The notes under the pieces are model-generated. The model made no database searches. It had not been told where the DNA came from and saw nothing but the letters and a program-made list of their open reading frames with translations. Of a stretch of 64,000 bases of DNA, positions 16,329 through 60,916 are shown piece by piece (positions within the stretch are counted from its first letter, which is position 1; every line of letters starts with the position of its first letter). The position numbers were made by a program, and so were the translations under genes. The DNA lies in NCBI GenBank assembly GCA_963709345.1, contig CAVPVX010000007.1, positions 576,001 to 640,000 of the forward strand, given 5' to 3'. The stretch comes from an uncultured Actinomycetes bacterium (GTDB lineage: Bacteria > Actinomycetota > Thermoleophilia > UBA2241).

Positions 16329-16494
16329 AATTCTCGGTCACCACTCCTTCGTGCCGGTGTCCAGAACGGCCAAGGAAGGTCCCAAATGTCAGTTCGCCCG
16401 TCCATTGTCACCCTCGGGGACCTGATGCGAGGATGAATGGAGCAGCGGCCGGCGGCGCCCTCCGTCACGCCGGCCGCCAGGCAGAAGGGGTCTC

Positions 16495-17163: not shown

Positions 17164-17214
17164 CGCCGCGCCGCGGCCGCCTGCCGCGGGCACCCGGCTT
17201 CGCTGAGAGACACC

Positions 17215-17271
17215 TTGTTCCTCCGCCTCCGCGGTGCTACTCTCACACCTTATTGAAAGCGGTTTTCACTT
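17215..17271 (+). promoter_or_regulatory. Sigma70-type promoter plus Zur box
   Basis: TTGTTC-N17-TACTCT, followed by TATTGAAAGCGGTTTTCACTT (TGAAA-N5-TTTCA), which resembles actinobacterial Zur sites. Confidence 0.7.
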
Positions 17272-17286
17272 GCAGAAAGGCTCCAT

Positions 17287-18722: not shown

Positions 18723-18730
18723 AGGCTCCC

Positions 18731-19550
18731 TTGTCCGAGCCGTACCTGGCCATCGACGACGCGACCGCCGGCTATGACGGGCGCCCGGCTCTGTCCGGCG
18801 TGACGATGCACGTCCCCCACGGCGCACAGGTGGCGATCGTCGGCCCGAACGGCGCCGGCAAGTCCACCCTCTTCAAGGCCCTGGTCGGTTTGCTCCCTCT
18901 GCGCTCCGGGCGAATACTCGCTTCACGGCCGGCAACCCGGCGGCCAGACGGATCCCATCGCCTACGTGCCGCAGCGCGAGGAGATCGACTGGGGCTTCCC
19001 AGTGACGGTGCACGACGTCGTCATGATGGGTCGGTACGGTCGTCTGGGATGGTTCTCGCGGCCGCGGACGGCCGACCGCGAGGTGGTCGGGCGCTGCCTG
19101 GACGAGCTCGGCATCGCCGAGCTCGCGGGGCGCGCCATCGGCGAGCTGTCCGGCGGCCAGCAGCAGCGCGTGTTCCTGGCGCGAGCGCTCGCGCAGGAGC
19201 CGCACGTCCTGTTGCTCGACGAACCCTTCACCGGGGTGGACGTCGGCGCCCGCGAGGCGCTCCTCGACCTGCTCGCCAAGCTGCACGGGCAACAGATCAC
19301 CGTGCTCGTCAGCACCCACGATATGGACATCGCCGCGCGGCGCTTCGAGCTGGTCGCGCTCCTGAACGGCCGGCTGGTCGCCTACGGCGCGCCGGCCGAG
19401 GTCTTCACCCCAGAGCACCTGACCGAGGCCTTTGGCGGCCAGGCTCTCTTCCTCGACGGCATGGTCGTGATCGACCAGTGCTGTCCCGGCCACGTCGGCG
19501 ACGGCGAAGCCCACCGCCACAGTCACGAGCCGCACGCGGGGCCGCGATGA
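18731..19550 (+). CDS. znuC: Zn/Mn ABC transporter ATP-binding protein, with apparent single-base frameshift near 18920
   Basis: Walker A GPNGAGKST is in one frame. AYVPQR, LSGGQQQRVFLARAL and LLLDEP are in the +1 frame. Confidence 0.85.
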
Positions 19551-20398
19551 TCACCTGGCTCACCGAGCCGTTCGCGCTCGAGTTCATGCAGCGTGCCCTG
19601 GCCGCATCGCTGATCGTCGGCGTGCTGTGCTCGGTGATCGGCTGCTTCGTCGTCCTGCGCTCCATGGCTTTTCTCGGCGACGCGCTCGCACACGCGATCC
19701 TGCCCGGCGTCGCGATCGCCTACCTGCTCGGCGCGAACCTGCTGCTCGGGGCGCTCGTCGCGGCCGTCCTCGTGGCGCTGGGGATCGGCCTCTTCTCGCG
19801 CCGCGGCGGCATGAAGGAGGACACGGCGATCGGAATCCTCTTCGCGGCCGCCCTCGCCCTCGGCGTCGTGCTCATCAGCACCGTGCGCTCCTATGCCACC
19901 GACCTCACGCACATCCTCTTCGGCAACGTCCTCGGCGTCACAGCCGGCGACCTCTGGCTCACCGGCCTGCTGGCGCTCGTCGTACTGGCCGTGCTGCTGC
20001 TCTTCTTCAAGGAGTTCCAGCTCGCGTCCTTCGACCCCGTGCTCGCCCACATGCTCGGCAAGCGCCCCGAGACGCTGCGCTTCGTGATGCTGATCCTGCT
20101 GGCGCTGACCATCGTGGTGGGGCTGCAGACCGTGGGCGTCGGCCTGGTCGCCGCCATGCTGGTCACTCCCGCGGCGACCGCCTACCTGCTCACCCGGCGG
20201 CTGGCGACGATGATGCTGGTCTCGGCCGTCATCGGCGCCGCGGCGAGCGTCACCGGCCTCTACGTGAGCTACTACATCGACGTCGCCTCCGGGGCGGCGG
20301 TCGTGCTCGCCGCCACCGCCGCCTTCCTCGTCGCCTACGTCGCCGCGCCGCGGCGAGGGCTCATCGCCCGGCGGACGGCGCGGCGGCGGCCCGCGTAG
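19547..20398 (+). CDS. znuB: Zn/Mn ABC transporter permease
   Basis: [25 protein letters not shown] and multiple TM helices. ATGA overlap with znuC. Confidence 0.9.
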
Positions 20399-20518
20399 CG
20401 CCCCCCGCGAGACCGGAGTGAGGCCGCCCTTCGGCTGCCGGCGGAGCGTCTCCGCCGTTTCGCCGCGCCCGCCGGCGTGCATAGTGCCTTCAGGACCCCC
20501 ACACGAGGAGGATTCGAC

Positions 20519-20986
20519 ATGCCCACCACGCTCGTCCTGGGTTACGACGGTTCAGACTGCGCCAAGAACGCACTGGAGCACACCGCGGCGCTCGCGGCGC
20601 ACATCGACGACGTCGAGGTGCTCGTCGTGTACGCCTTCGAGTTCTCCGTCGGCTACGTCCCGATGGGCATGGCGGACTCTCCACTCCTGATGAGCGCCGA
20701 GTACGACAACCACGTCCAACTCATCCGCGAGTTCGGCGAGCAGCAGGTCGCGGAGGCCACCGCGCAGCTCACCGCGGCGGGCGTGCGGACGACCGGCGCC
20801 GTGACGGAGGGCCGGTCGGTCGACGTCCTGCTGGAGACCGCCCGGGAGAAGAGCGCAACCGCGATCGTCGTCGGCAGCCACGGACAGGGCGCCGTCTCGG
20901 CCGCCTTCCTCGGCTCGACGGCGCTCAAGCTGTTGCACCACAGCGACACCCCCGTCCTCGTCGTCCCCCAGCACGAGAAGAAGTGA
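20519..20986 (+). CDS. Universal stress protein (UspA family)
   Basis: LVLGYDGS, IVVGSHG..FLGSTA and PVLVV. GAGGAGG RBS. Confidence 0.9.
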   Translation: MPTTLVLGYDGSDCAKNALEHTAALAAHIDDVEVLVVYAFEFSVGYVPMGMADSPLLMSAEYDNHVQLIREFGEQQVAEATAQLTAAGVRTTGAVTEGRSVDVLLETAREKSATAIVVGSHGQGAVSAAFLGSTALKLLHHSDTPVLVVPQHEKK

Positions 20987-21477: not shown

Positions 21478-22398
21478 TCAGCGCCTCTGCTGCGACTGCC
21501 CCGGCGTCGGGTTGGGCTGCGTCGGCTTGGCGGGGATTGGAGCGATGCCCGCCAGGTCGCCGATCACGTTGACGAGGCTGCCGTCGGCCGGCACGACGAT
21601 CTTGGCGTTCTGCCAGAAGGCCTTCTCGACCGTCTCGAGCTTGCGCAGCACCTGGGCGTTGCCCACGAAGAACTGCTCGGCCGCCTCGTTGACCAGCTTG
21701 ATCGCCTGGGCCTCGCCCTCAGCTGCGAGGATCTTGCCCTGCCGCACGCCCTCCGCCTTCTTGATCTCGGCGCGGCGCTGGCCGTCGGCCTGCGTCTCGG
21801 TGGCGGTGGCATAGTCGATCGCGGAGATCTTCTCGTTCTCGGCCTTGACGACCTTGTTCATCGTCTCCTGGACGTCCGCCGGCGGGTCGATCTCCTTGAG
21901 CTCGGTGCGCAGGATCTCGAGGCCCCAGTTCGCGGTCTCGGTGCGGAGCGTCGTGCGCAGCTCCTCGTTGATGCGGCCGCGCTCGCTGTTCGCCGACTTG
22001 AGACTCAAGGTGCCGATGATGTTACGCAGCGTGGTGCGCGCGAGCTGCACGATCTGGATCTGGTAGTTGGCCACGTTGTACTGCGAGGCCTTCACGCTCT
22101 CTTCGTCGAGCTTCACCTTGAGATAGACCTGCGCGTCGACCCGGGCGTTCAGGTTGTCGTTGGTGATGATCGTCTGCGGCGTGGCGTCGACGAGGGTCTC
22201 GCGGATGTCGACCTGGTACATCTTCTCTATGCCGTACGGGATCGTGAGGTGGATCCCCGGTCCGGCGAACCGGTTGTACTTGCCGAGACGCTCGACGAGC
22301 CCACGGTGCGTGGGGCGCACGATGCGGATCCCGGACAGGATGGTGATCACGATGAAGACGACGACCACCGCGATGACGACGAGAGCTACCCAGCCCAT
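21478..22398 (-). CDS. SPFH/band 7 (stomatin/QmcA-like) membrane protein
   Basis: N-terminal TM, VERLGKY, TTLRNIIG and coiled-coil AEG repeats. Confidence 0.9.
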   Translation of the reverse strand: MGWVALVVIAVVVVFIVITILSGIRIVRPTHRGLVERLGKYNRFAGPGIHLTIPYGIEKMYQVDIRETLVDATPQTIITNDNLNARVDAQVYLKVKLDEESVKASQYNVANYQIQIVQLARTTLRNIIGTLSLKSANSERGRINEELRTTLRTETANWGLEILRTELKEIDPPADVQETMNKVVKAENEKISAIDYATATETQADGQRRAEIKKAEGVRQGKILAAEGEAQAIKLVNEAAEQFFVGNAQVLRKLETVEKAFWQNAKIVVPADGSLVNVIGDLAGIAPIPAKPTQPNPTPGQSQQRR

Positions 22399-22551
22399 AT
22401 CGACCCCTTTCGAGCGAGCGCGGGCACGGCCGGCGGCCGTCGCACTCACGATGATGTTCACAGATCATGCTAGGGCCGGGCGGGCTGAAAGACAAGGGCC
22501 GGGGCCGAGGCGGGGGCGTCGGGCAGGCACGCGACGCGCCGGGCTCCGCCC

Positions 22552-23355
22552 TCAGAGCCCGAGCAGCCCCGGCAGATCGGCGACCGAGCCGATGATGTGA
22601 TCCGGCGTGCCGCCGGCGCGGGCAAGCGCCTCCGGGCGGAACTTGCCCGTGCGCACCAGCACGCCGGTGATGCCGACGGCCTGGGCCGCAAGGACGTCGC
22701 CGCGCACGTCGTCGCCGATCATCGCGACGCGCTCGGCAGGCAGGCCGAGGTCGCGGACGGCGGCGAGAAACGCCTCGGGCGCCGGCTTGCCGAGCACGAC
22801 GGCCTCGACGCCGGCGGCGAGCTCCAGGCCGGCGAGATAGGCGCCGGCGTCGAGGTTCTCGCCGTCCGTCGTCATCCAGATGAGGTTGCGGTGCATCGCG
22901 ACCAGGCGGGCGCCGCCGTGCAGGGCGCGCAGCACGCGGTTGAAAGTGGCGAACGTGTAGGAGTCGTCGGCGCCTGACACGAGGATCACCTCCGGATCCT
23001 CGTCGACGCCGACGAGCCGGACGCCCTGCAGATCCTCGGCCTGCGCGTCTCCGAGCAAGAACACCCGTGCCCCCGGGTGTCGCTCGCGGAGGTAGGCCGC
23101 GGCCGCGACGGGCGTGGTCATGATGTGGTCGTCGGGGACCTCGAAGCCGCCGACGCGCAGGGACTCGCCCATCCGCGGCCGGCTGCGCCCCGTCGTGTTG
23201 GTGACGAGGCGCAGCGGCAGCCCGGCGGCCCTGATCCGCGCGAAGGCCGCGACGGCTCCCGGAAGCGGCCGCCACGACACGGTGAGCACGCCGTCCATGT
23301 CGAAGAGCAGGCCCTCGATATGCGCCGGCGTCATGTGCGTCGTCCTCGTCGTCAT
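22552..23355 (-). CDS. HAD-IIA family hydrolase (LHPP/NagD-like)
   Basis: FDMDGVL, VTNTT, GKP and MIGDD..DV. Confidence 0.88.
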   Translation of the reverse strand: MTTRTTHMTPAHIEGLLFDMDGVLTVSWRPLPGAVAAFARIRAAGLPLRLVTNTTGRSRPRMGESLRVGGFEVPDDHIMTTPVAAAAYLRERHPGARVFLLGDAQAEDLQGVRLVGVDEDPEVILVSGADDSYTFATFNRVLRALHGGARLVAMHRNLIWMTTDGENLDAGAYLAGLELAAGVEAVVLGKPAPEAFLAAVRDLGLPAERVAMIGDDVRGDVLAAQAVGITGVLVRTGKFRPEALARAGGTPDHIIGSVADLPGLLGL

Positions 23356-49162: not shown

Positions 49163-50122
49163 ATGACCAGCGAGGAGATGCCGTTCAGCGGCATTGCAAC
49201 CTTCTTCAAGGCCACGCATGTGGCGGCGCCTTCGACGGCTGAGGCCGATGTCGCCGTCATCGGCATCCCCTGGGACCTTGGTACGACCTATCGATCGGGC
49301 GCGCGCATGGGCCCGCGCGCCCTGCGCGAGGCCTCCTCGCTCTGGGGCTTCCAGCGCGACCGGGAGCCTCTTCTGGACGGTGACGCCGGCGTGGAACTGC
49401 TCGGCGGCGTTCGCTGGGCCGACTGCGGCGACGTCGTGATCGGTCCCATGTGGTCGCCGGAGCGCTTCCACAACGCAGTCGTCGAGCGGCTCCTGCCCAT
49501 CATGCGGGAGGGGCTCTTCCCCGTCATACTCGGTGGTGACCACTCGATCACGTACCCTGCGCTCAAGGCAGTGTCGCAGTCTCGTGACGGCGCTCCCTTC
49601 CAGCTCGTCCAGTTCGACACTCATATGGACTATTGGGAAGAGGAGGGTGGCCATCGATTCTCGCACGCGAGTCCGATCATCCGCTCGCACGAGGCCGGCT
49701 GGCTCGCCGGGCTGACGCAGTACGGCATCCGCAACCTCCACACGACCGACGACAACATCGCCTTGGCCAGAAGCCGCGGAGCGCACATCTTCTGGTGCGA
49801 ACAGGCGAAGGACATGCGCGTCGACGAGCTCGTCGAGCATCTCCCCGTGGGCGGCGACGTCTACATCACGTTCGACATCGACGCCCTCGATCCATCGATC
49901 GCGCCGGCCACCGGAACGCCCGAGCCTGGCGGCTTCAGCTACTACGAAGCCAAGGCGATCCTGCTCGCCGTCTGCGCGCGCTGCAACGTGATCGGCCTGG
50001 ACCTCGTCGAGGTGGCGCCGATGTACGACGGTCCCGGCCAGGTCACGTCGCTGCACGGCGCCCGGCTGATCCTCGACACGGTGGGCGCCGTCTTTCGCCG
50101 ACGCGCCGAGCTGCGCCGGTAG
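49163..50122 (+). CDS. speB: Agmatinase / ureohydrolase family enzyme
   Basis: GARMGPRALR, GGDHS, DTHMD, DIDALDP.APATGTPEPGG and DLVEVAP. Confidence 0.8.
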   Translation: MTSEEMPFSGIATFFKATHVAAPSTAEADVAVIGIPWDLGTTYRSGARMGPRALREASSLWGFQRDREPLLDGDAGVELLGGVRWADCGDVVIGPMWSPERFHNAVVERLLPIMREGLFPVILGGDHSITYPALKAVSQSRDGAPFQLVQFDTHMDYWEEEGGHRFSHASPIIRSHEAGWLAGLTQYGIRNLHTTDDNIALARSRGAHIFWCEQAKDMRVDELVEHLPVGGDVYITFDIDALDPSIAPATGTPEPGGFSYYEAKAILLAVCARCNVIGLDLVEVAPMYDGPGQVTSLHGARLILDTVGAVFRRRAELRR

Positions 50123-50361
50123 GGAACTCCTCGTCGGCCGCGCCGCCGGCCCCGGCAGCGCCGATCGTCGTGCGACGCAAGAGGGTCAAGCTGGCGCAAC
50201 GGCAGCCGGCGACGCTTTCGGGCAGCGACCAGGGCAAGATCAGCCGTCTGGCGCGCCGGCTCGAATCCAACGCTCCAGACGATCGGCACTCTCGCCCATG
50301 CGCTGGGCATCGAGGTGTACCTGAGGCCGTGTGGGATCGCGCGGCGAGCAGCTGAGCCGGA

Positions 50362-51816
50362 TCAGTCCGGCAGCAGCACGCTGAACGTCGAGCCCTCGCC
50401 TTCCACGCTGCGTACCTCGAAGCGGCCGCCGACGCGCTCGACGAGGCGCTTGACGATCGAGAGTCCGAGACCATTGCCCTCGAGCTCCCGCGTCTCGGCG
50501 CGCTTCTCGCGAAAGAACTCCTCGAAGAGGCGCGCCAGGTTGTCCGGCTTGATGCCGATGCCGGTGTCGACGACATCGAGACGCAGCCAGCCGTCGTCGA
50601 CGGCGCCGCGGATCGTCACAGCCCCGTCGTCACGATTGTACTTGACGGCGTTGCCGACGAGGTTGCTGAGGAGGAGCTGCAGATCGTCGGCCCGGATCAG
50701 TGCCGGGGGCAGGTCGGCGGCCAGTTCGGTCGTGACCGTCACGCCTCTCTGGGCGCCGCGCTCGCGAGCGAGCTCCACGACCTCCTCCAGGACGGGAGCG
50801 ACCGGGACGAGTTCGGGCTCCTCGCCCTCCGGGGCCTGCTCGCTTCGCGCCAGGGTGAGCAGGTCGCGGATGAGCTCGACCAGATTGTCGATGCGGTGAT
50901 CGGCGCGCGCGACCATCGGGAGGTAGGGATCGAGGTCCTCGCCCAGGCTCTTGTCGGTCACGACCTCGAGCAATCCCTTGATCGATCCGAGTGGGCTCTT
51001 GAGCTCGTGCACCATGGTGCGGATGAAGCGCTGCTTCTCCATCGCGAGGCGCCGGACTTCGCTGATGTCGCTGAGCGTCACGATGCGGCCGCGCGCCGCG
51101 CCGTTTTCGTCGCGGAAGGTGACGATGCTCGCCATCCACGCCTGCTCGCCGATCTCGAGCTGGCGCACGGTGCGGTCTTTCGCCGGCGCCTCAAGGTGCT
51201 CGCAGAGCGGCGCCAGGGCGCCGCCGCCAAGCAGTTCCCGCGCCGGCCGCATGAGCACCTCGTCGTCGCTCGACTCGAGCAGCTCCAGCATCGGCGGGTT
51301 GGCGAGCACGACGTCGCCGTCGCGGTTGACCACGAGCACCGCGTCGCGCAGCGAACTCACCAGGGAGTGCGTCTGCGTCTTCTCCTCGGCCAGAGCGAGC
51401 AGGCTGGCCTCGTGCTCGACGCGCAGGCGCTCCGCGTCGGCGCGCGCCTGCTTGTGCCGCAGCAACGTCGCCACGACTCCGAGAAGGTCGTCTGGGTTGA
51501 ACGGCTTGGGCAGGAAGAAGTCCACACCCTGCCGCGTCGCCGCGATCGCCGTGTCGATGTTCGCGTACGCGGTGATCATGCAGATCATGGCGTCGCAGCC
51601 GCGCTGCTTCATCGTCTGCAGCAGGCTGAGGCCGTCGGTGTCCGGCAGACGGTAGTCGAGCAGCGCGACATCGTAGTCGCGTTCCTCCAGACGCGCAAGC
51701 GCGCCGGCGCCGTCTTCGGCCTCGCCGACCTCGTACCCCTCCATCTCGAGGATGACGCGGATGCCGCTGCGCACGCCGTACTCATCGTCGACGATGAGGA
51801 TGCTGCCTTCGGGCAT
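50362..51816 (-). CDS. Hybrid sensor kinase REC-coiled coil-PAS-HisKA-HATPase
   Basis: ILIVDDE, LLDYRLP and PKPF, then HELKSPL, NLVGNAVKY, DTGIGI and GNGLGL. Confidence 0.9.
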   Translation of the reverse strand: MPEGSILIVDDEYGVRSGIRVILEMEGYEVGEAEDGAGALARLEERDYDVALLDYRLPDTDGLSLLQTMKQRGCDAMICMITAYANIDTAIAATRQGVDFFLPKPFNPDDLLGVVATLLRHKQARADAERLRVEHEASLLALAEEKTQTHSLVSSLRDAVLVVNRDGDVVLANPPMLELLESSDDEVLMRPARELLGGGALAPLCEHLEAPAKDRTVRQLEIGEQAWMASIVTFRDENGAARGRIVTLSDISEVRRLAMEKQRFIRTMVHELKSPLGSIKGLLEVVTDKSLGEDLDPYLPMVARADHRIDNLVELIRDLLTLARSEQAPEGEEPELVPVAPVLEEVVELARERGAQRGVTVTTELAADLPPALIRADDLQLLLSNLVGNAVKYNRDDGAVTIRGAVDDGWLRLDVVDTGIGIKPDNLARLFEEFFREKRAETRELEGNGLGLSIVKRLVERVGGRFEVRSVEGEGSTFSVLLPD

Positions 51817-51845
51817 CGTGATCCCTTCTCTCGTCGTCCCGGCCC

Positions 51846-52280
51846 TCAGGCCTTGGCGGGGTCGCTGGTCGGGTCAGCCTCGCCGAGGACCGCCAGCTCT
51901 TCGATGATCGTGAGCACCTGCTTGCCGGTCACCGGCTTGTCCAGAAAACGTGTGAGGCCCGACCACTCGCGCAGGCCGGCCGCCTCACCGTCGAATCGTG
52001 TCCCCGTCTCGGCCGCCACCCCGCTGAGCATGACTCGCGGGATATGGCGGAGCCGCGCGTCCTTGCCGATCTGGTAGCCCAGCCGGAAGCCATCGTCCAC
52101 CTTCTCCATCATGAGGTCGAGGAAGATGATGCTCGGGGTCTCGTCCTCGAGCAGCGCGAGCGCAGCCTCCGGCGACTCCGCCGTGAGGACCCGATAGCCT
52201 CGGGCCTCGAGGTAGACCTTCTTGCCGTTCAGGAAGTCCCGGTCGTCGTCGACGAAGAGGACGGTCATGGCTTCAGTCAT
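51846..52280 (-). CDS. Single-domain response regulator
   Basis: VDDD, FLDLMM, LSG and DKPV. No output domain. Confidence 0.88.
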   Translation of the reverse strand: MTEAMTVLFVDDDRDFLNGKKVYLEARGYRVLTAESPEAALALLEDETPSIIFLDLMMEKVDDGFRLGYQIGKDARLRHIPRVMLSGVAAETGTRFDGEAAGLREWSGLTRFLDKPVTGKQVLTIIEELAVLGEADPTSDPAKA

Positions 52281-52283
52281 GGC

Positions 52284-54386
52284 TCACTCTCCTTGCGGGG
52301 CCTCAGGGCCTTTCGGCCCGGCCCCGGCGTCATTGGGATCGCCGATCATCGTCTTCTGCCCGGTGGCATGCGTACGGGGCAGCTCCACATGGAACGTCGT
52401 ACCGCGATCGGTCTCGCTGTCGAACCAGATGGTCCCGTTGTGCATCTTGACGATCCCGTAGCTTATGGGCAGGCCGAGGCCGGTACCCTTGCCGATGCTC
52501 TTGGTGGTGAAGAAGGGCTGGAAGACCTTGTCGCGGGCGCTCTGCGGGATGCCCGCGCCCTCGTCCCGCACCGACAGGCGGATGCGCCCGGTCTCGGGCA
52601 CCTCGCAGGCACTGACGGACACGGCGCCGTCGCGGCCCTCCATCGCCTCGACGCCGTTCTTCACGAGATTGATGAGGACCTGCGTCATCTGATCGCGGTC
52701 GAGGTCTGCCCGCAGACCCGGGGCCACGTCGACGATCAGCTCGACCGCGTGTCCACTCGGCTCGATGGTCGCGATCGCAGAATCGACCGCCTGACGGACG
52801 ACGGCGAGCACGTCTTCGGTCTGCAGGTGCACGCGGCTCTGGCGGGCGAAGTCGAGCAGGTTACCGACGATCTTCTTGCAGCGCTCGCCCTCTTCCGCGA
52901 CGAGCTTCAGGTCGTGGTCGAGGTCGTCGCGGTCGTTCAGTTTCTTCCCGAGAATGTGGATGTAGAGCAGGATCGTGCTCAGCGGGTTGTTGAGCTCGTG
53001 GGCGACGCCGGCCGCCATCTGGCCCATGCTGGCCAGCTTCTCGGTGTTGATGATGTGCCGGTGCACGTCGCGCAGGTCGCTCCAGGGCACGTTCAGCTCG
53101 GTGCAGACGCGCTCCGCCTGGTCGATCATGAAGGGCAGGCACATCGCGTCCTCCGCCATGCCGCAGTGCACGGCGACGGCCTTGGCCCGGCAGGTCTGGT
53201 AGCCGCACGCGCCGCAGTTGAGCTCGTCTTCGGGGAAGAACTTGTTGGTGCGCGCGAGGATCTCGCGGATCTCGTCCTCGGTCGGCTCGGTGAGGCGCTG
53301 GTCGTCGCTCACGTAGGCGCGGCCGAGCGGCAGGCCGGCGAAGCCCGCACGTGCGTCGTCGATCGGCTCGTCCGCGGCGGCGTCCGCGGCTTCCTGCTCC
53401 CGCCGGCACTCCGCGACGTAGTCGCTCACGCGGCGCTTGCGCAAGAGGCCGGGTTCTGAGGAGTTGATGCCCGGCCCACAGTAGCACCCGCGACACATGA
53501 GAGCCTCGACGAGCAGAGCACGGTCGGTCTCGAGCTCGCCGAGGCTGTCGAGCACCGCGACGGTCTCGTCGTGACCGCTGACCACCAGCACGTCGGGGTC
53601 GAGGATGCCGCGGTCCATGTTGGCGGTCTCGAGCAGGCCGCCGGGCAGCGGGAAGACCCGCGCCCGCCCCGCAGCCGGCTCGTCCCACACGGCCGCCGCG
53701 GCCATCTCCGGGACGACACCCCGTTCGGCCAGCAGGCGGTGTGCCTCCTGGAGCGTCAGGACCTCGTCGATGACGTCCGGCAGCAGCTCGTCGTGGGCCT
53801 CGGCCTTCTTGGCGACGCACGGACCGACGAACACGCAGTTGACCTCGTCGCCGTGAAGACCCTTGACGGCCAGAGCCGCGGCGATCATCGGCGAGACGAT
53901 CGGCACCAGCCGGTCGACGAACTCGGGACGATACTTGCGCACGTACTCCGCCACGGCCGGGCAAGCGGTGGCGATATGGATCCCGGTCGGGTTGGCGGCG
54001 AGATACTCTTCGTAGGCGCGACTCACCAGGTCGGCGCCTTGAGCGACCTCGACGACGTAGTCGAAGCCCGCGGCCTTGAAGGCGCCGACGACCTGCTCCG
54101 GCGGCGCATCGAAGCCGGCGGGGAACGACGGCGCCAGCAGTGCCGCGACCGGTACGTCCTCCTCGAGGAGCCAGGATGCGCGTTCGAGGCCGCTCGCATA
54201 CGTCTTGGCGTTCTGCGAGCACACCAGCGTGCAGTTGCCGCAGGAGATGCAGCGCTCGTGGACCACGACAGCCTGCCCGTCCTCCACGCGGATCGCCTGG
54301 GCCGGGCAGTCGCGGACGCATGTGTAGCAGCGCCGGCAGTTCTGCTTGATCGTCCTGATGACGCCTTCCATGGGAGCCTCCGTCAC
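52284..54386 (-). CDS. Sensory-type (group C) [FeFe]-hydrogenase fused to a histidine kinase
   Basis: 2x[4Fe-4S] N-terminus, H-cluster-like motifs TACP / GPCVAKK / EALMCRGC and NCGACGYQTC FeS domain, then AHELNNPL, N box, DEGAG, FFTTK and GTGLG. Confidence 0.88.
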   Translation of the reverse strand: MTEAPMEGVIRTIKQNCRRCYTCVRDCPAQAIRVEDGQAVVVHERCISCGNCTLVCSQNAKTYASGLERASWLLEEDVPVAALLAPSFPAGFDAPPEQVVGAFKAAGFDYVVEVAQGADLVSRAYEEYLAANPTGIHIATACPAVAEYVRKYRPEFVDRLVPIVSPMIAAALAVKGLHGDEVNCVFVGPCVAKKAEAHDELLPDVIDEVLTLQEAHRLLAERGVVPEMAAAAVWDEPAAGRARVFPLPGGLLETANMDRGILDPDVLVVSGHDETVAVLDSLGELETDRALLVEALMCRGCYCGPGINSSEPGLLRKRRVSDYVAECRREQEAADAAADEPIDDARAGFAGLPLGRAYVSDDQRLTEPTEDEIREILARTNKFFPEDELNCGACGYQTCRAKAVAVHCGMAEDAMCLPFMIDQAERVCTELNVPWSDLRDVHRHIINTEKLASMGQMAAGVAHELNNPLSTILLYIHILGKKLNDRDDLDHDLKLVAEEGERCKKIVGNLLDFARQSRVHLQTEDVLAVVRQAVDSAIATIEPSGHAVELIVDVAPGLRADLDRDQMTQVLINLVKNGVEAMEGRDGAVSVSACEVPETGRIRLSVRDEGAGIPQSARDKVFQPFFTTKSIGKGTGLGLPISYGIVKMHNGTIWFDSETDRGTTFHVELPRTHATGQKTMIGDPNDAGAGPKGPEAPQGE

Positions 54387-56113
54387 ACTGCCGCCGTATC
54401 GTGCCCGCGGCGGCGGCTCGTGTAGCTGCGATGCAGGAGGCGATGCGAGACCTCGCTCAGCGGGCGCCCGAGGAGGCCCTCGTACAGCGCCCGCAGCTCG
54501 GCGTTCTCGTGCGAGCGCCGAGCCCGGGAGCGCCTGTCCACTTCGTAGAGGCGCTGCAGCCGCTCCTTGATCGCCGCGGCGTCGGTGTCGTAGGGCTGGC
54601 CGCCGCCGCCGATGCAGCCGCCGGGGCAGCTCATCACTTCGACGAAGTGCACCGGCGGATCGGCGCTCAACAGCTCGTCGAGGACGTCCTTGACGCGGCC
54701 GAGACCGTTGACGACGGCGAGGCCGAGCTCGGCCTCACCGGCGCTCACCGCGAACCGGCGCACGCCCTCGGAGCCGCGAGCCTCGCTCACCTTGGGGCCG
54801 CCGGCGAGCTCCTCGCCGGCGGCGAGCAGGTAGGCGGTCCGCAGCGCAGCCTCCATGACGCCGCCGCTGCCGGCGAAGAGGCGACCGGCGCCGCTCGCCT
54901 CGGAGAAGGGCGGGTCGAGCGGCTCCAGCTCGGTCGCGTGCGCGAAATCCACGCCGAACCGGCCCCAGAGGTGCTCCAGTTCACGCGTGGTGAGCACGTA
55001 GTCCACGTCACCGAGGTCTTGTGCCTCGAACTTCTTCGCCGTGCAGGGCATGATCGAGACGACCACGAGCTTGTCCCGGTCGACCCCCGCCCGATCGGGG
55101 TAGATCTCCTTGATCAGCGCGCCGGCCATCTGCTGCGGGCTCTTGCAGGTCGAGAGGTGCGGGATCAACTCCGGGTGGTGTGTCTCGACGAAGTGTACCC
55201 ACGCCGGCGAGCAGCTCGTGAACATCGGCAGCACGCCGCCGTTCTCGATGCGGTCCAGCAGCTCGCTGCCCTCTTCCATGATCGTGAGGTCGGCGGCGAA
55301 GCCGGTGTCGAAGACGGCGTCGAAGCCGACCCGCTTGAGGGAGGAGGCGAGGCGCTCCAGCATTGTGCGCACGCCCTCGCTCTTGCTGTGGCCTTCGAGA
55401 AGCGTCGCCGGCACGGCGGGCGCCACCTGGGCGACGACCACGGTGTCGGGATCCGCGAGCGCGTCGACCACCTCGTCGACCTGGTCGCGTTCGACGATGG
55501 CGCCGGTCGGGCAGACCCGGGCGCACTGACCGCAGAACACGCAGTCGCTGACGTTGAGTCCAAGGCTGAAGCCCGGCGCGACCCTGGTCTGGAAGCCACG
55601 CCCGACGTAGTCGATGGCGCCCACACCCTGGATGTCGTGGCAGACGGTGACGCAGCGGCCACAGAGGACGCACTTGTCGGGGTCGCGCCAGAGTGCCGGC
55701 GAGCTGATGTCCATGGGGTGATGCTTGACCGCCCCGACGTACCGGCGCCGGCGCACGCCGAGGTCGGCGGCGAGATCCGCGAGCTCGCAGTCGCCGCCTC
55801 GCGCGCAGGAGAGGCAGTCCTGCGGATGACTCGCGACCAGCAGTTCCAGGATCGCGCGCCGCGCCTTGAGCACGCGCGGCGTGTGCGTCTGGACGCTGAG
55901 GCCGTCGCGCGCCTCGAGGGTGCAGCTCGTCTGCAGGCGCGGAACGCCCTCGACCTCGACGATGCACAGGCGGCACGAGGCCGACGGTGACGGCGCCCAG
56001 TCAAGGGAACACAGGTGCGGGATCTCGATACCGGCGCGGCGGGCCACCTGCAGGACGGTCTCGCCCTCCGTCACCTCGATCTCTCTGCCGTTGATGGTGA
56101 TGCTCATGGTCAT
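54383..56113 (-). CDS. hydA: [FeFe]-hydrogenase catalytic subunit (group A, bifurcating type)
   Basis: [2Fe-2S] domain, His-ligated HxxxCxxCxxxxxC, two [4Fe-4S], TSCSP, MPCTAKK, EVMSCPGGCIGGGGQP and SHEN..LLH tail. Confidence 0.93.
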   Translation of the reverse strand: MTMSITINGREIEVTEGETVLQVARRAGIEIPHLCSLDWAPSPSASCRLCIVEVEGVPRLQTSCTLEARDGLSVQTHTPRVLKARRAILELLVASHPQDCLSCARGGDCELADLAADLGVRRRRYVGAVKHHPMDISSPALWRDPDKCVLCGRCVTVCHDIQGVGAIDYVGRGFQTRVAPGFSLGLNVSDCVFCGQCARVCPTGAIVERDQVDEVVDALADPDTVVVAQVAPAVPATLLEGHSKSEGVRTMLERLASSLKRVGFDAVFDTGFAADLTIMEEGSELLDRIENGGVLPMFTSCSPAWVHFVETHHPELIPHLSTCKSPQQMAGALIKEIYPDRAGVDRDKLVVVSIMPCTAKKFEAQDLGDVDYVLTTRELEHLWGRFGVDFAHATELEPLDPPFSEASGAGRLFAGSGGVMEAALRTAYLLAAGEELAGGPKVSEARGSEGVRRFAVSAGEAELGLAVVNGLGRVKDVLDELLSADPPVHFVEVMSCPGGCIGGGGQPYDTDAAAIKERLQRLYEVDRRSRARRSHENAELRALYEGLLGRPLSEVSHRLLHRSYTSRRRGHDTAAV

Positions 56114-56118
56114 TCCTC

Positions 56119-58113
56119 TCAGGCGACGGCCAGCACGGCCTGTTTGGGGCAGGCGTCGGCGCAGGCGCCGCAGCCGGTGCACCGGTCGACGATGATGGAG
56201 TGCGCGAACGTGCGCTTGCCGATGATCGCCCCCGACGGGCAGTTCCTGGCGCAAAGGGTGCAGCCGGTGCAGAGTTCGGGGTCGATGTCGTACACGCGCA
56301 GACCCTGGCAGGCGCCGGCCGGGCAGACACCCTCCATGATGTGCGCCTCGTACTCGTCGCGGAAGAAGCGCAGCGTGCTGAGCACGGGGTTCGCGGCCGA
56401 CTGGCCGAGGCCGCAGAGCGACGTCTCCCTGACGACCTCCGCCAGCTCCTCCAGATGGAGGATGCCGCGGAAGCGCTCCAGCCGGCGCAGATCGTCGCCG
56501 ACGGGGCGCTCGGTGATCTCGGTGAGGATCTCGAGCATGCGCGTCGTACCCTCGCGACACGGGGTGCACTTGCCACAGCTCTCGTTGCGGATGAACCCAA
56601 TGAAGAACTTCGCAACGTCGACCATGCAGGAACGCTCGTCCATGACGACCATGCCGCCGGAGCCCATCATCGCGCCGAGCTCCTGGAGTGTCCCGTAGTC
56701 GGTGGCGACGTCGAGCAGATCGTCGGGGATGCAGCCGCCGCTCGGGCCGCCGATCTGGACGGCCTTGATGTGGTGGCCGGCGGGAGCGCCGCCGCCGATG
56801 TCGTAGACGACCTCGCGCAGCGGGACGCCGACCGGGACCTCGACGAGGCCCGTGTTGCGCACGCGGCCGCTGAGCGCGAAGACCTTGGTGCCGGCCGCGT
56901 CGCCGCGGCCGAGGCCCGCGAACCACTCGGCGCCGCCGTTCAGGACGGCCGGGATGTTGGCCAGCGTCTCGACGTTGTTGAGCACGGTCGGGCAGCCGTG
57001 CAGACCGGAGACCGCCGGGTAGGGCGGGCGGGGACGGGGCATGCCGCGCCCACCCTCGATGCTCGCCAGGATCGCCGTCTCCTCGCCGCAGACGAAGGCA
57101 CCGGCGCCCATCTTGATGGTGATGTCGAAGTCGACGAGGCTGCCGAGGATGTTCTTGCCGAGCAGCCCGGCGGCGCGGCACTGCTCGATCGCGTCGCGCA
57201 GCCGCTCTACCGCGAGTGGGTACTCGGCGCGACAGTACACATAGCCCCTGGTCGCGTTGATCGCGTAGGCGGCGACGATCATGCCCTCGACCACCCGGAA
57301 CGGGTCGCTCTCGAGTACGGCGCGGTCCATGAATGCGCCGGGATCGCCCTCGTCGGCGTTGCAGATCAGGTACTTCTGCGCCTTCGGCTGGTCGAGCGCG
57401 ACCTGCCACTTCCGCCCGGTCGGGAAGCCGGCGCCGCCACGCCCGCGGAGGCCGGAGGCGGTGACCTCGTCGCAGACCTCCTGCGGGGTCATCGTCGCCA
57501 GCGCCTTGGCGGCGGCGCGGAAGCCGCCGGCCGCGAGCGCTGCGTCGAGGCTCGCCGGGTCGACGACGCCGCAGTTCTCGAGCACCACCTTCGTCTGGCG
57601 CGCGAAGAACGGGGTCTCGGCGATGGGCGGTACGTCACGGTAGAGCCCGTCGGGATCGTCGTAGCGCCCGAGAAGGAAGCGGTTGCGCAGCTCCCCCCGC
57701 CCGAACACGGCCTCCAGGAACTCGTCGGCGGAGTCGGGACCGAGGTCGCAGTAGCTCAGTCGCACGCCTTCCTCGGTGACCACGTCGACGAAGACCTCGC
57801 GCTGACAGTAGCCGACGCAGCCGGTCTCGAGGATCGGCACGCTGAGCCCGCAGCGCTCGAAGTAGGCCTTCATCTTCGCGATCACCGTGGTCGCGCCGTT
57901 GGCGCGCCCGCAGGTGCCGGCACCGACGAAGACGACCATGCCGTCGCCGCCGAGCCGGGCGCGTGCGAGGCGCCGGGCGCGCTTCGAAGCACATGCCTCG
58001 TCGTCGTGACAGACGGGGCCGCGCTCGATGCAGGCGACCAGGTCGGAGCACGGCGTGGACGGCGCGTGCGTGCAACGGTCGCAGCAGGGCTCCGTGAGCA
58101 GGCTCTCGTTCAT
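56119..58113 (-). CDS. hydB: NuoF-like flavin subunit HydB
   Basis: SGLRGRGGAGFPTG, NADEGDPGAFMDR, GAFVCGEET, GGPSGG, ESCGKCTPCR and C-terminal 2x[4Fe-4S]. Confidence 0.93.
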   Translation of the reverse strand: MNESLLTEPCCDRCTHAPSTPCSDLVACIERGPVCHDDEACASKRARRLARARLGGDGMVVFVGAGTCGRANGATTVIAKMKAYFERCGLSVPILETGCVGYCQREVFVDVVTEEGVRLSYCDLGPDSADEFLEAVFGRGELRNRFLLGRYDDPDGLYRDVPPIAETPFFARQTKVVLENCGVVDPASLDAALAAGGFRAAAKALATMTPQEVCDEVTASGLRGRGGAGFPTGRKWQVALDQPKAQKYLICNADEGDPGAFMDRAVLESDPFRVVEGMIVAAYAINATRGYVYCRAEYPLAVERLRDAIEQCRAAGLLGKNILGSLVDFDITIKMGAGAFVCGEETAILASIEGGRGMPRPRPPYPAVSGLHGCPTVLNNVETLANIPAVLNGGAEWFAGLGRGDAAGTKVFALSGRVRNTGLVEVPVGVPLREVVYDIGGGAPAGHHIKAVQIGGPSGGCIPDDLLDVATDYGTLQELGAMMGSGGMVVMDERSCMVDVAKFFIGFIRNESCGKCTPCREGTTRMLEILTEITERPVGDDLRRLERFRGILHLEELAEVVRETSLCGLGQSAANPVLSTLRFFRDEYEAHIMEGVCPAGACQGLRVYDIDPELCTGCTLCARNCPSGAIIGKRTFAHSIIVDRCTGCGACADACPKQAVLAVA

Positions 58114-58583
58114 GCCGCCTCCTCGGCGTCCGTCGTCACCGCGTCCAGCAGGTCGTCCAGCTTCTGCGCTGTCAGGTGGCCGTAGAACTCGCCGTCCAGC
58201 TTGATCACCGGCGCGATGGAGCAGGCGCCGAGGCAGGCGACCTCGACGACGGTGAAGCGGCCGTCGCCCGAGTTGCCGTCGTCGCGCAGCTTGAGACGCC
58301 GCTTCAGGTGCTGCGCCAGCACCAGACTCTGCTTCACGTGGCAAGCGGTGCCGCGGCAGACCTCGATCACGTGCTCACCGAGCGGCGCGAAGCGGAACTG
58401 GTTGTAGAAGGTGGCCACTCCGAACACCCGGCTCACCGGCGTGCCCAGAGCGCTCGCGACCTTCGCCATCGCCTCGACCGAGACGAAGCCCTCCGCTCCC
58501 TGGATCTCCTGCAGCAGCGGGATCAACTGGTCGCGGGTCAGCTCGTCACCGCGGGTGGCGATGATCATGTCGACCGCGGTCAT
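58110..58583 (-). CDS. hydC: NuoE-like [2Fe-2S] subunit HydC
   Basis: LIPLLQEIQ, VATFY, CRGTACH and CLGACSIAP. Confidence 0.93.
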   Translation of the reverse strand: MTAVDMIIATRGDELTRDQLIPLLQEIQGAEGFVSVEAMAKVASALGTPVSRVFGVATFYNQFRFAPLGEHVIEVCRGTACHVKQSLVLAQHLKRRLKLRDDGNSGDGRFTVVEVACLGACSIAPVIKLDGEFYGHLTAQKLDDLLDAVTTDAEEAA

Positions 58584-58586
58584 GGG

Positions 58587-59012
58587 TCACGCTTCCTTGG
58601 TCGCCGCGGGCGTGTCGGCGTCGGCGAGCAGCGCGGCGATGGCGTCGGCGAGGTCGGCCAGCTTGACCGGCTTCTCGAAGAACTTGGCGGCCGGCCACTC
58701 GCGGTACATCATCGGCTCGAAGATGTGGGTCTTGGTCTCGAGTTCCTTGGTGAAACCGCTCATGATGATCACCGGGATAGCCTCGGTCTCGGGGTCGTCG
58801 CGGAGCTTGTAGGCGACGTTGAAGCCGTCGGTGTCGTAGTCCATCATGATGTCGAGCACGACGAGGTCGGGCCGCTGCTTCTTCAGTTGCTCTCGCGCCT
58901 CGATGCCGCTGTGGGCCGTGTCCACGGTGTAGCCGCGGGCCTCCAGGAACGCCTTGACGGACGTCACCAGGTCGCGGTCGTCGTCGACCATCAGGATGCG
59001 CTTGGCCTTCAC
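58587..59012 (-). CDS. Single-domain response regulator
   Basis: VDDD, VLDIMM, MSG and EKPV. AGGAGG RBS before GTG. Confidence 0.88.
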   Translation of the reverse strand: MKAKRILMVDDDRDLVTSVKAFLEARGYTVDTAHSGIEAREQLKKQRPDLVVLDIMMDYDTDGFNVAYKLRDDPETEAIPVIIMSGFTKELETKTHIFEPMMYREWPAAKFFEKPVKLADLADAIAALLADADTPAATKEA

Positions 59013-59080
59013 GTCTCTCCTCCTTGGTTGGGCGGCTCCGCCGGTGTCCGCCGGCGCGAGCCGAGTAGTCCCTCTGCTCA

Positions 59081-59098
59081 CAGTGAAACTGTTCACAG
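59081..59098. promoter_or_regulatory. Rex-type operator upstream of the hydrogenase operon
   Basis: CAGTGAA-ACTG-TTCACAG resembles TTGTGAA-N4-TTCACAA. Confidence 0.7.
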
Positions 59099-59143
59099 TC
59101 GCCTCGAAAAAAACGCCTTCCTTCTCGCCCGCGCCCGCCCGAG

Positions 59144-59899
59144 TCATGACCGAATCCCCTGCCCCGCCGGCCGGACCGGCGCGGCCTCGGAGTCGGCGCC
59201 CCCCCGAACGCCGGCCACTTCGTCGCCGGCGACCGGGCCGTGCACCAGAAACGAGAGCAACTCGAGCTTGGATGCGATATCCGTGTGTTCTACGTAGCAG
59301 CCCTCGGGCGGCGTGACCCGCTTGGGCACGAAGTTCAGGATCGCGCGCGCGCCGGCCGCGGCGACTCGGTCGACCAACGCCTGGAGACCTTCCGGCCGGG
59401 TGGCGACGACCGCCATGTGGATGTCGAGCTCGCGCAGGACGGTCTCGAGATGGTCGACGTGATAGCAGCGCCGGCCGGCGTACATGCGGCCGACCTTCTC
59501 GGCGTCGACGTCGAAGGCGGCGGCGATATGGAAGCCGCGCTCCTCGAAGCCGCGGTAGGAGAGCAGGGCGCGTCCGAGATCACCGACCCCGAAGAGCGCG
59601 ATGGACTGGGTCTCGTCGGTGCCCATGATGCGGCTGATCGTGCGGCTCATCTGGAAGACGTTGTAGCCGCGGGAGATGTGCCCGAAGGTCCCGAAGGAGG
59701 CGAGGTCACGGCGAAGCTGCGCCGGCGTGACGCCGACGAGCTCGGCAAGCTGCTGGGAGTGGATGTCCTCGACACCGTCAGTGTGGAGCTCCTCCAACAC
59801 CTTCCGATAGACGCTGAGACGCTCGACCGTCTGCAGGGAAACCCGCTTCTCCGGGCGATGCAACTGCTTCGGTGCGGTGCCGCCGGTCTGTTCGCTCAT
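59144..59899 (-). CDS. rex: Redox-sensing transcriptional repressor Rex
   Basis: TVERLSVY, SQQLA, QLRRDLASFG..GY, GVGDLGRAL and ILNF.P. Confidence 0.93.
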   Translation of the reverse strand: MSEQTGGTAPKQLHRPEKRVSLQTVERLSVYRKVLEELHTDGVEDIHSQQLAELVGVTPAQLRRDLASFGTFGHISRGYNVFQMSRTISRIMGTDETQSIALFGVGDLGRALLSYRGFEERGFHIAAAFDVDAEKVGRMYAGRRCYHVDHLETVLRELDIHMAVVATRPEGLQALVDRVAAAGARAILNFVPKRVTPPEGCYVEHTDIASKLELLSFLVHGPVAGDEVAGVRGGADSEAAPVRPAGQGIRS

Positions 59900-59926
59900 G
59901 CTCAACGGTCCTCCCACGTCTCCTCC

Positions 59927-59962
59927 AGCTGTGACTCTATTCACAGCTCTACGCGCTGTCAA
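59927..59962 (-). promoter_or_regulatory. rex promoter overlapped by a Rex operator (autoregulation)
   Basis: TTGACA-N17-TAGAGT on the minus strand. The palindrome AGCTGTGA-CTCTAT-TCACAGCT covers the -10. Confidence 0.8.
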
Positions 59963-60031
59963 GCGCCTCTGGGGAATCCGCTGGGCAGTCGGGCGCCGGC
60001 GAAGCGAGTGGCGCGCGGAGGGGCTGGTCCG

Positions 60032-60916
60032 CTAGCGGCCGAGAGCCGCCGCCAGAGCGGCGATGGACTCCGGCGGCGTGCCACAGCAACCGCCGACGAT
60101 GCCGGCGCCCAAAGCGGGGTAGCCGGAGACGATCGCGGCGAAGTGCTCGGGGGTTTCCCGGTAGACCGTCTCCCCACCCTCCAGCCGTGGCTGACCGGCA
60201 TTCGGCTGGGCGCAGGTGACGCCGCCGTTGAGCTCGGCGAGCACCGGCACGAGCGCCGTCATCGGCTCGGCGGTGATCTCGCAGTTGCAGCCGACGACGG
60301 CGGCGCCCGCGTCCTTGAGCTCGCGCACAGCCGCCGCGGGGTCGACGCCCATCATGGTGCGAAAGCCCTGGGCGGCCGGCTTGAAGGCCATGCTGGCCAG
60401 AACCGGACGGCCGGCCGCGGCGGCCACCGCCTCCTGGACGGCGATGCGCGCCTCCGTGAGGTCGAACATGGTCTCGACGTTCAGCAGGTCGACACCGCCG
60501 GCGACGAGGGCTTCCGCCTGCTCGGCGAACGTGGCGCGCAGCGCCTCCGGGTCGGCGGCGCCCATCGGCTTGAGCATGTGCCCGCACGGCCCGATGTCGC
60601 CGGCGACGTAGCGGCCCGGGAACTCCCGGTCGCGGACGCCGGTGGCGAGACGCGCGCCGGCTTCGTTGAGCTCCACGGCGCGGGCGGAGAGGCCGTGCGC
60701 CTCGAGACGCATGCCAGTACCGCCGAAGGTGTTGGTATTCACGATGTCGGAGCCGGCGGCGAAGAAACCGCGGTGGATGTCGGCGACCTCGTCGGGGTGC
60801 GAGACGTTCCACTCCTCGGGGCACTCGCCGGCGGCGAAGCCGCGCTCCATGAGCGCGCGCCCGAGGCCACCGTCCAGCAGCAGCGGTCGCTCGGCGATCA
60901 GTGCGAAGAGGTCCAT
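60032..60916 (-). CDS. Homocysteine S-methyltransferase domain protein (stand-alone MetH N-terminal module)
   Basis: LLDGG, AGSD..TNTFG, ETM, GCNC, PNAG.P and GGCCGT. Confidence 0.9.
   Translation of the reverse strand: MDLFALIAERPLLLDGGLGRALMERGFAAGECPEEWNVSHPDEVADIHRGFFAAGSDIVNTNTFGGTGMRLEAHGLSARAVELNEAGARLATGVRDREFPGRYVAGDIGPCGHMLKPMGAADPEALRATFAEQAEALVAGGVDLLNVETMFDLTEARIAVQEAVAAAAGRPVLASMAFKPAAQGFRTMMGVDPAAAVRELKDAGAAVVGCNCEITAEPMTALVPVLAELNGGVTCAQPNAGQPRLEGGETVYRETPEHFAAIVSGYPALGAGIVGGCCGTPPESIAALAAALGR

Follow-up and report, generated by a model that had tools for sequence, protein, structure and literature searches.

How does a sensory [FeFe]-hydrogenase hand on its signal when the genes around it encode kinases and receivers and, apart from Rex, no DNA-binding regulator? 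The question is raised by an operon in a 64-kilobase (kb) stretch of DNA from an uncultured Actinomycetes bacterium (GenBank assembly GCA_963709345.1, contig CAVPVX010000007.1, positions 576,001 to 640,000; the whole stretch is called the window below). Molecular hydrogen (H2) is a central currency of anoxic ecosystems, and signal transmission by the putative sensory [FeFe]-hydrogenases is treated as an open question in PMC8163306. In the window, the hydrogenase HydABC is encoded together with the repressor Rex, a sensory-type hydrogenase fused to a histidine kinase (HydS~HK), two stand-alone receivers (REC1 and REC2), and a hybrid receiver-PAS-kinase. The whole is best explained, with fair probability in our judgment, by a two-input control of the HydABC operon, in which NADH and H2 would be the inputs and the output would lie outside the locus.

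An operon and a relay module conserved across phyla

The operon comprises eight genes on the minus strand between 50362 and 59962, as read from open reading frames (ORFs), Pfam, and NCBIfam. The first-pass annotation of this DNA had described nine co-oriented, mostly tightly spaced genes; the genes that it listed, their strand, and their coordinates were all found, and Pfam and NCBIfam bore out the identities given to them, but the count is eight. In the order of transcription, the features are as follows.

59934..59962, minus strand: sigma-70-like promoter 5' of rex, TTGACA-17 nt-TAGAGT (10/12 matches)
59930..59945: Rex operator 1, TGTGAATAGAGTCACA, 0 mismatches, overlapping the -10 hexamer
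59144..59917, minus strand: rex, redox-sensing repressor, starting at GTG 59917 or ATG 59899
59082..59097: Rex operator 2, TGTGAACAGTTTCACT, 1 mismatch, within the rex-REC1 spacer
58587..59012, minus strand: REC1, stand-alone receiver of 141 amino acids, starting at GTG 59012 with the ribosome-binding site AAGGAGGAG (Response_reg, 9e-19)
58110..58583, minus strand: hydC, NuoE-like [2Fe-2S] subunit (2Fe-2S_thioredx, PF01257, 1.8e-43; NuoE/HoxE in NCBIfam)
56119..58113, minus strand: hydB, NuoF-like FMN/NADH subunit (Complex1_51K, NADH_4Fe-4S, two Fer4)
54383..56113, minus strand: hydA, catalytic [FeFe]-hydrogenase subunit (Fer2_4, NADH-G_4Fe-4S_3, Fer4, Fe_hyd_lg_C, Fe_hyd_SSU)
52284..54386, minus strand: HydS~HK, sensor kinase (Fer4, Fe_hyd_lg_C, FeS PF04060, HisKA, HATPase_c)
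51846..52280, minus strand: REC2, stand-alone receiver (Pfam), orthologous to the post-sensor receivers of other phyla
50362..51816, minus strand: hybrid REC-PAS-HisKA-HATPase kinase (Pfam)

Adjoining genes overlap or stand at most 29 nucleotides (nt) apart, with the exception of the rex-REC1 spacer, whose length of ~130 nt presupposes the REC1 start at GTG 59012. A 186-residue reading of REC1 is unlikely, given the ribosome-binding site 5' of this GTG. Position 59962, at the upper end of the span, belongs to the -35 hexamer of the promoter and is no start codon. A ninth co-oriented gene, of the homocysteine S-methyltransferase family (60035-60916, minus strand), is located on the far side of the rex promoter and is not part of the span. 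In L005, a locus of Ignavibacteriota type, a homologue (21739-22620, minus strand) is found within a few kb of the cassette, possibly by coincidence. As had been claimed, Pfam showed no helix-turn-helix (HTH) regulator besides Rex among the operon proteins, and NtrC- or NarL-type regulators were absent from the 64 kb, where the tblastn matches were receiver domains only.

Related loci were obtained from a genome scan of species representatives, of which the best 80 of >611 stretches were considered. A fusion spanning the hydrogenase domain (H-domain) and the kinase was present in 28 of them (L001-L027 and L062), distributed over about ten phyla, with Myxococcota, Ignavibacteriota, Bacteroidota, Planctomycetota (including Kuenenia), Desulfobacterota-type lineages, Elusimicrobiota, Marinimicrobia, Bdellovibrionota, and Bacillota represented. 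In all 26 assessable loci (the remaining two contigs end first), a hybrid REC-(PAS)-HisKA-HATPase kinase is encoded downstream of the sensor, 10 with PAS and 16 without; the ORFs of ~375 amino acids found after the receiver are, by Pfam, such PAS-less hybrids. A stand-alone receiver is placed between sensor and hybrid in 22/26 and hydA directly upstream of the sensor in 20/26, while rex occurs within the flank in 10/28 loci and directly before hydC in 6/28. The closest locus among the best 80 stretches, L001, has a sensor, HydB, and Rex that are 60%, 70%, and 69% identical to those of the window. Lack of a conserved gene order had been named beforehand as a finding that would speak against the system; the order is kept across some ten phyla, and these synteny counts rule out a chance juxtaposition. 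The locus is thus one real, coherent, and conserved operon.

The maturase genes hydG, hydE, and hydF directly follow the relay genes in many loci, and in L015 and L017, which lack hydABC or have it at a distance, they are still linked to the sensor. Several variants of the layout were seen. In Ignavibacteriota-type loci (L005, L007, L008, and L011, about 7000-20700; also L002) the relay is placed between two hydCBA sets, in the order hydCBA1, sensor kinase, REC, REC-PAS-kinase, REC, hydCBA2, and a third kinase. The second set has a short HydB, matching only residues about 200-587, and no DNA-binding protein was seen among the ORFs scanned in these double-hydCBA loci, an arrangement that suggests switching between two hydrogenases. 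In three Bacteroidota loci (L013, 4347-6001; L016, 13585-15148; L018, 14752-16317) rex comes later than the hybrid kinase, ahead of a ribF-type gene for an FAD synthetase and, next, hydG. A second HydS-like gene without a kinase core, 24-30% identical to the H-domain and FeS part of the sensor, was found in L018 (5040-6398, minus strand), L027 (19933-21096, minus strand), and L003 (604-2268, plus strand); in L018 a SpoIIE-type phosphatase-domain gene (3360-4541) is located near it.

The hydrogenase and its Rex operators

HydB has an N-terminal CCxxC prefix with a [2Fe-2S] region, the FMN/NADH site, and a C-terminal domain for two [4Fe-4S] clusters. Over residues 60-660 it can be aligned with the B subunits of five bifurcating enzymes of known structure (7t2r_B, 9n5u_B, 8a6t_B, 7q4v_B, and 7p5h_B; E values of 1e-175 to 1e-198), the C-terminal two-cluster domain included, and it is accompanied by a NuoE-like HydC. 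HydA aligns over residues 10-575, its whole length, to HydA1 from the solved bifurcating complex of T. kivui (8a6t_A, E value of 1e-162) and scores 693.8 bits against the NCBIfam model FeFe_hydrog_A6, below the cut-off of 765. Its L1, L2, and L3 motifs are TSCSPAW, MPCTAKKFE, and EVMSCPGGCIGGGGQP, of which L2 and L3 are canonical. As the first reading of the sequence had proposed, HydABC appears, judged by these alignments, to be of the electron-bifurcating/confurcating [FeFe]-hydrogenase type, which is group A3 in HydDB.

Rex combines an N-terminal winged-helix DNA-binding domain (Put_DNA-bind_N, PF06971, 6.4e-17) with a Rossmann NAD(H)-binding domain (CoA_binding, PF02629, 4.4e-15), in which the GxGxxG motif reads GVGDLG in the translation, and it clears the NCBIfam subfamily NF003995 (201.9 bits versus a cut-off of 126). 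Two boxes resembling the palindromic operator consensus TGTGA-N6-TCACA, quoted in PMC5317091, flank rex, as had been annotated. The first overlaps the -10 hexamer of the only promoter-like site in 49900-60200, and the second precedes REC1-hydCBA. Both are conserved in L001, the first as TGTGAATAGAATCACA (L001:4613) and the second, within the rex-hydC spacer, as GTTTCACTGTGA; they stand out as conserved islands amid diverged intergenic DNA, and the -35 hexamer is identical. Across the 512,607 nt of the 28 related loci, six perfect Rex boxes were found, all of them beside rex or hydC. Position and conservation of the operators hence support the Rex control postulated for this locus, and Rex most likely gates transcription of the predicted operon by NADH/NAD+.

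A third perfect Rex-type box, TGTGAACTACGTCACA, was detected elsewhere in the window (16312-16327), ~170 nt upstream of a gene for a 4Fe-4S-domain protein (16495-17160, plus strand), which is followed by genes for a Fur-family regulator (17287-17736, plus strand) and a ZnuA-type binding protein (17580-18719, plus strand). The Rex regulon may therefore reach beyond the hydrogenase operon in the window.

The sensor kinase and its receivers

HydS~HK consists of a domain for two [4Fe-4S] clusters, a sensory-type H-domain, a Cx2Cx4Cx16C cluster domain, HisKA, and HATPase_c. Pfam found no PAS domain in it, and the kinase core occupies the PAS position, so that the protein lacks the C-terminal PAS by which reviews define M2f/group C. 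The hallmarks of HydS listed in PMC8163306, i.e., the N-terminal two-[4Fe-4S] domain, the absence of the proton-relay Cys, and Cx2Cx4Cx16C, are all found in it together with the H-domain. By the scheme of PMC11406978, kinase-domain forms beside A3 genes are C3 and HATPase-bearing forms are C1.

We aligned 29 full-length fusions, which were 30-77% identical to the HydS~HK of the window, with motif positions assigned through the alignment to the HydA of the window and the description in PMC8163306. The presumed H-cluster cysteines C142, C190, C298, and C301 are kept in 28, 29, 29, and 28 of the 29 sequences, respectively, and none has Cys at the proton-relay position 141. The position of M353 is Gly (G188) in 26/29, that of K358 is Lys or Arg in 25/29, and that of E361 is Glu in 28/29. 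The cysteines of Cx2Cx4Cx16C (C391, C394, C399, and C416) are invariant (29/29). On the kinase side, the phospho-His H463 is kept in 27/29, the ATP-binding boxes (N573/N577, D608, G610, G612, F622/F625, and G634-G638) are invariant or nearly so, and the core matches that of ZraS with an E value of 3e-33. In an AlphaFold2 model (mean predicted local distance difference test score, 86.7), the FeS domain leads through a short low-confidence link of ~30 residues into a long dimerization and histidine-phosphotransfer (DHp) helix (435-482). HydS~HK thus looks like a group-C-like sensor, as had been suggested, with the cluster ligands kept, the proton-relay Cys absent, and an intact kinase core fused to it.

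An exhaustive search recovered ~30 distinct clusters at 50% identity with the full architecture. To survey the output domains, 28 relatives of differing length were hand-picked from the 150 listed. Among these, the Fer4/H-domain/FeS module is joined to sigma-54 activators in 13, kinases in 10 (some also carrying PAS, GAF, or receivers), GGDEF in one, and a methyl-accepting chemotaxis protein (MCP) domain in one, while two have PAS only and one has no further domain. Varied outputs on a constant input are the pattern expected of a sensor module. The 13 sigma-54 fusions have an HTH; together with the GGDEF and MCP fusions, they are P0170, P0179, P0181, P0186, P0192, P0200, P0203, P0205, P0224, P0230, P0246, P0249, P0259, P0182, and P0187. 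The sigma-54, GGDEF, and MCP fusions would be one-component H2-responsive regulators.

The sensor might read something other than H2. HydS~HK could respond to the redox poise of the cell, conveyed to its Fe-S clusters by ferredoxin or NAD(H), with the H-domain as a degenerate relic. It has three accessory cluster sites, the L3 cysteines are spaced CxxC and not Cx3C as in the HydA of the window, and for the Hydrogenedentota C1 proteins, in which H-cluster motifs were not found, H2 sensing has been doubted (PMC11406978). However, the four cysteines, the Lys or Arg at the K358 position, and the Glu at the E361 position are kept in fusions only 30-44% identical, which is not expected of a relic; an H-cluster and a slow H2 turnover are known from related HydS enzymes (PMC8163306); and the maturase genes accompany the sensor in L015 and L017, which have no hydABC nearby. 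We therefore regard sensing of redox poise as unlikely, and H2 as most likely the ligand.

The three receivers have the complete phosphorylation pocket. REC1 has the acidic pocket along with Asp in DIMM, Ser in MSG, and Lys in EKP; the pocket of REC2 is intact in an alignment of 33 receivers; and in the hybrid, D10, D11, D54, T82, K104, and the phospho-His H270 are invariant in 27/27 sequences. Both kinases belong to class I (HisKA), with the phospho-His and the N, G1, F, and G2 boxes. In a tree of 37 receivers, REC2 falls into a group of 19 with 18 other post-sensor receivers (support of 84/76), which contains a clade of 17 (98/94). REC1 groups, at 97/87, with the receivers of L004 and L009, which follow hydA, and that of L062, which follows the sensor. 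In the six other rex-hydC loci, no receiver separates rex from hydC, so that REC1 at this place is lineage-specific.

A role of REC1 as a partner of Rex was considered and rejected, both on these six loci and on the presence of REC1-type receivers in the rex-less L014, L019, L027, and L062. In the Desulfobacterota-type loci L004 (3113-5509) and L009 (3587-6034), hydA is followed by the REC1-like receiver and a GAF-HisKA-HATPase kinase, and the sensor kinase comes ~6.5 kb further, past hydG/hydF or transporter genes.

Output of the relay, known systems, and host

Under the two-input reading, Rex would sit on the box over its own -10 hexamer and on the second box ahead of REC1-hydCBA, and would be released when NADH/NAD+ rises, so that hydrogenase and sensor would be made when NADH needs disposal. 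In HydS~HK, a slow sensory-type hydrogenase domain, the H-cluster and the accessory Fe-S clusters would shift their redox state with H2, and the last Fe-S domain, joined to the kinase dimerization helix, would set autokinase or phosphatase activity. Most likely, the next element would be the hybrid REC-PAS-kinase, a partner of the sensor in every assessable locus, whose receiver would take over the signal, as would the stand-alone REC2; REC1 would be an extra receiver of this lineage. The hybrid kinase would then phosphorylate a regulator outside the locus.

Where such a regulator might be was addressed by a Pfam search of 204 of the 285 ORFs outside the cassette in the related loci (L008 and the farthest ORFs were left out). 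DNA-binding response regulators adjoin the cassette only in L006 (NtrC-type, divergent from hydC), L014, and L019 (both NarL-type); L002 has a partial sigma-54 activator at the contig end. The earlier statement that the locus has no DNA-binding output hence holds for the window and for most of the related loci scanned. The adjacent regulators of L006, L014, and L019 suggest a transcriptional end point that varies with the lineage, and together with the frequent one-component sigma-54 fusions they point to transcription. The final output is probably a regulator encoded elsewhere and most likely acts on transcription.

Several observations weigh against this reading. The textbook L1 motif of [FeFe]-hydrogenases is TSCCPxW, and HydA has Ser in place of the second Cys. 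TSCSPAW is also the motif of HydA1 in the solved A. woodii HydABC complex (7q4v_A), and the Ser variant was found in 14 of 24 L1 motifs of related loci (TSCCP in the other 10), which makes it a common natural form. Genes hydE, hydF, and hydG had no tblastn match in the 64-kb window, an absence that does not exclude membership in the HydABC type. The number of Rex-type boxes in the whole window, 3 versus 0.77 expected, is not significant alone (3 were reached in 7/100 shuffles), and the evidence is carried by their position and conservation. The scan of 49900-60200 showed no promoter-like site ahead of REC1 on which operator 2 might act, and no sigma-54 promoter was evident in the rex-REC1 spacer, inspected by eye only. 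L001 has seven of the eight operon genes, without REC1, and the best 80 stretches include no Thermoleophilia locus. Most loci, like the window, have no DNA-binding partner in the scanned flanks, and the distal regulator is assumed. Finally, neither biochemical nor genetic work on a kinase-fused HydS or its receivers turned up in our search of the open-access literature.

The same scarcity of DNA-binding partners (none besides Rex seen in the window or in 24/28 loci) would be explained if the output were post-translational. The trio of sensor kinase, receiver, and receiver-kinase would then form a self-contained H2-feedback circuit, with Rex as the only transcriptional element, and REC2 or REC1 would work in a CheY-like manner, their phosphorylated form binding HydABC or the maturases and gating activity. 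Receiver genes immediately precede hydC in three clades (the window, Bacteroidota, and Ignavibacteriota), at a distance of 3 nt in the window and 2-9 nt in Ignavibacteriota. An enlarged beta4-beta5 segment, with Trp in most sequences, is common to the post-sensor receivers, and the position of hydG/E/F directly 3' of the relay genes in many loci would also fit. Such a circuit would be the first case of a hydrogenase controlled post-translationally in CheY style, and it would account for the retention of the module in about ten phyla with no DNA-binding partner. However, no partner was identified, REC1-type receivers also occur with no hydABC nearby (L062), and L006, L014, and L019 do have adjacent DNA-binding regulators. 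Single-domain receivers are, besides, commonly phosphate sinks or connectors. We consider both the CheY-like mechanism and the closed circuit built on it quite improbable.

That HydS~HK would be a fourth structural or catalytic subunit, with its kinase serving assembly or local control, is very improbable: it has been named the T subunit (BfuT) of BfuABC (PMC11406978) and directly follows hydA in 20/26 loci, but L004, L009, L017, L020, L021, and L062 have no adjacent hydABC, the receiver-kinase partner is always present (26/26), the kinase motifs are intact, and sigma-54 activators, GGDEF, and MCP domains are found on the same module elsewhere.

Two-input control with a distal output thus stays the preferred reading, and the question is how much of it was already in print. 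The first-pass annotation had regarded the locus as the best candidate for an undescribed system in the window, a view that the literature does not support. HydDB has an [FeFe] group C1 labeled "histidine kinase-linked (putative)" (PMC5037454), and hydCBA followed by a kinase-domain sensory hydrogenase (BfuT) is described in Hydrogenedentota, Calditrichota, and Bacteroidota (PMC11406978). In Caldithrix abyssi, rex and a Rex box precede hydCBA and a fifth gene (PMC5317091), and joint control of bifurcating hydrogenases by Rex and HydS has been proposed in the discussion of PMC10084766. The locus is therefore a member of a predicted, uncharacterized class and no new kind of system. The accessible texts of PMC5037454, PMC11406978, PMC5317091, and PMC10084766 make no mention of the receivers and the hybrid kinase; the term "response regulator" occurs 0 times in those of PMC5317091 and PMC11406978, supplements and gene-cluster figures aside. 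No description of the conserved kinase/receiver/hybrid-kinase module was found in the open-access literature searched. What we add is a constant companion of the sensor kinase, the receiver-kinase hybrid, and a usual one, the dedicated single-domain receiver.

The closest described arrangements are Cabys_3675-3679 of Caldithrix abyssi and the "sub-type V" BfuABC-T clusters, which, like the window, have rex with a Rex box, hydC-hydB-hydA, and the kinase-domain sensory hydrogenase (PMC5317091, PMC11406978). Compared by description and not by alignment, the window differs in the second operator, the REC1 between rex and hydC, and the actinobacterial host. TmHydS (group C, M2f) and TamHydS (group D, M2e) share with HydS~HK the N-terminal two-[4Fe-4S] domain, the lack of the proton-relay Cys, Cx2Cx4Cx16C, and a location beside a bifurcating group A hydrogenase (PMC8163306). 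HydS~HK has Gly at the M353 position, as in TmHydS, and, as reported for TamHydS, Leu at the second residue ahead of the first L3 Cys. However, TmHydS ends in PAS and TamHydS has no signaling domain, while in HydS~HK the Fe-S domain runs straight into HisKA-HATPase, so that the transduction step is built into the polypeptide. For Ruminococcus albus and Solidesulfovibrio fructosivorans, a dual control of the bifurcating hydrogenase by NADH/NAD+ (Rex) and HydS was proposed (PMC10084766); by general reviews, their HydS is of the PAS type, without a fused kinase or a linked receiver/hybrid-kinase set.

More distant parallels exist. The [NiFe] group 2b regulatory hydrogenases form a class of their own in the HydDB table (PMC5037454). 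There, too, H2 is sensed by a slow hydrogenase, which controls the histidine kinase that governs hydrogenase expression, but metal site and fold are unrelated, and sensor and kinase are separate proteins joined via a PAS-like domain. The kinase partner in these systems is HoxJ or HupT, and the regulator is HoxA or HupR. Their output is thus a known NtrC-type DNA-binding regulator; the window has neither [NiFe] subunits nor an NtrC-type regulator and is no HoxBC-HoxJ-HoxA-type system, so that the likeness would be one of functional analogy only. Myxococcus RedCDEF and Caulobacter DivJ/PleC-DivK are multi-kinase networks around single-domain receivers and, like the window, combine two kinases with output-less receivers. 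In these networks, the receivers serve as connectors, sinks, or allosteric kinase regulators; only generic two-component domains are shared, and the input is different.

The module stands beside bifurcating hydrogenases in fermenters, syntrophs, the anammox bacterium Kuenenia, and uncultured Actinomycetota, in which it probably helps to set the timing of H2 release or uptake. With the sensor fused to a standard histidine kinase and accompanied by a constant receiver-kinase partner, H2 sensing could become readable by routine autophosphorylation and phosphotransfer assays. The instance in the window adds a Thermoleophilia-like actinobacterial host, the two-operator Rex layout, and the extra receiver.

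With ~70% G+C, the window contains housekeeping genes of Gram-positive type (dnaE, a PASTA Ser/Thr kinase, mfd, pth, ctc, prs, glmU, ispE, ksgA, tatD, metG, and eno). Among the 120 matches listed for its enolase, the three taxon-named proteins, 86-89% identical, are all from Thermoleophilia metagenome-assembled genomes (MAGs). The best 120 of 5785 HydS~HK relatives (E value of ≤0.001) are all at least 62% identical, the sequence of the window included, and those with a taxon name are mainly from Thermoleophilia MAGs, among which sensors 80-90% identical occur, with one labeled Deltaproteobacteria. Enolase and sensor kinase thus make an actinobacterial host, as presumed at first, a reasonable assignment. 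That the system is unusual there, as had been stated, is not supported; to judge by these matches, HydS~HK is common in relatives of the Thermoleophilia-like host. Elsewhere in the window, a type II/IV secretion ATPase (T2SSE and MshEN; 10734-13268, plus strand) carries an internal receiver domain at residues 177-286.

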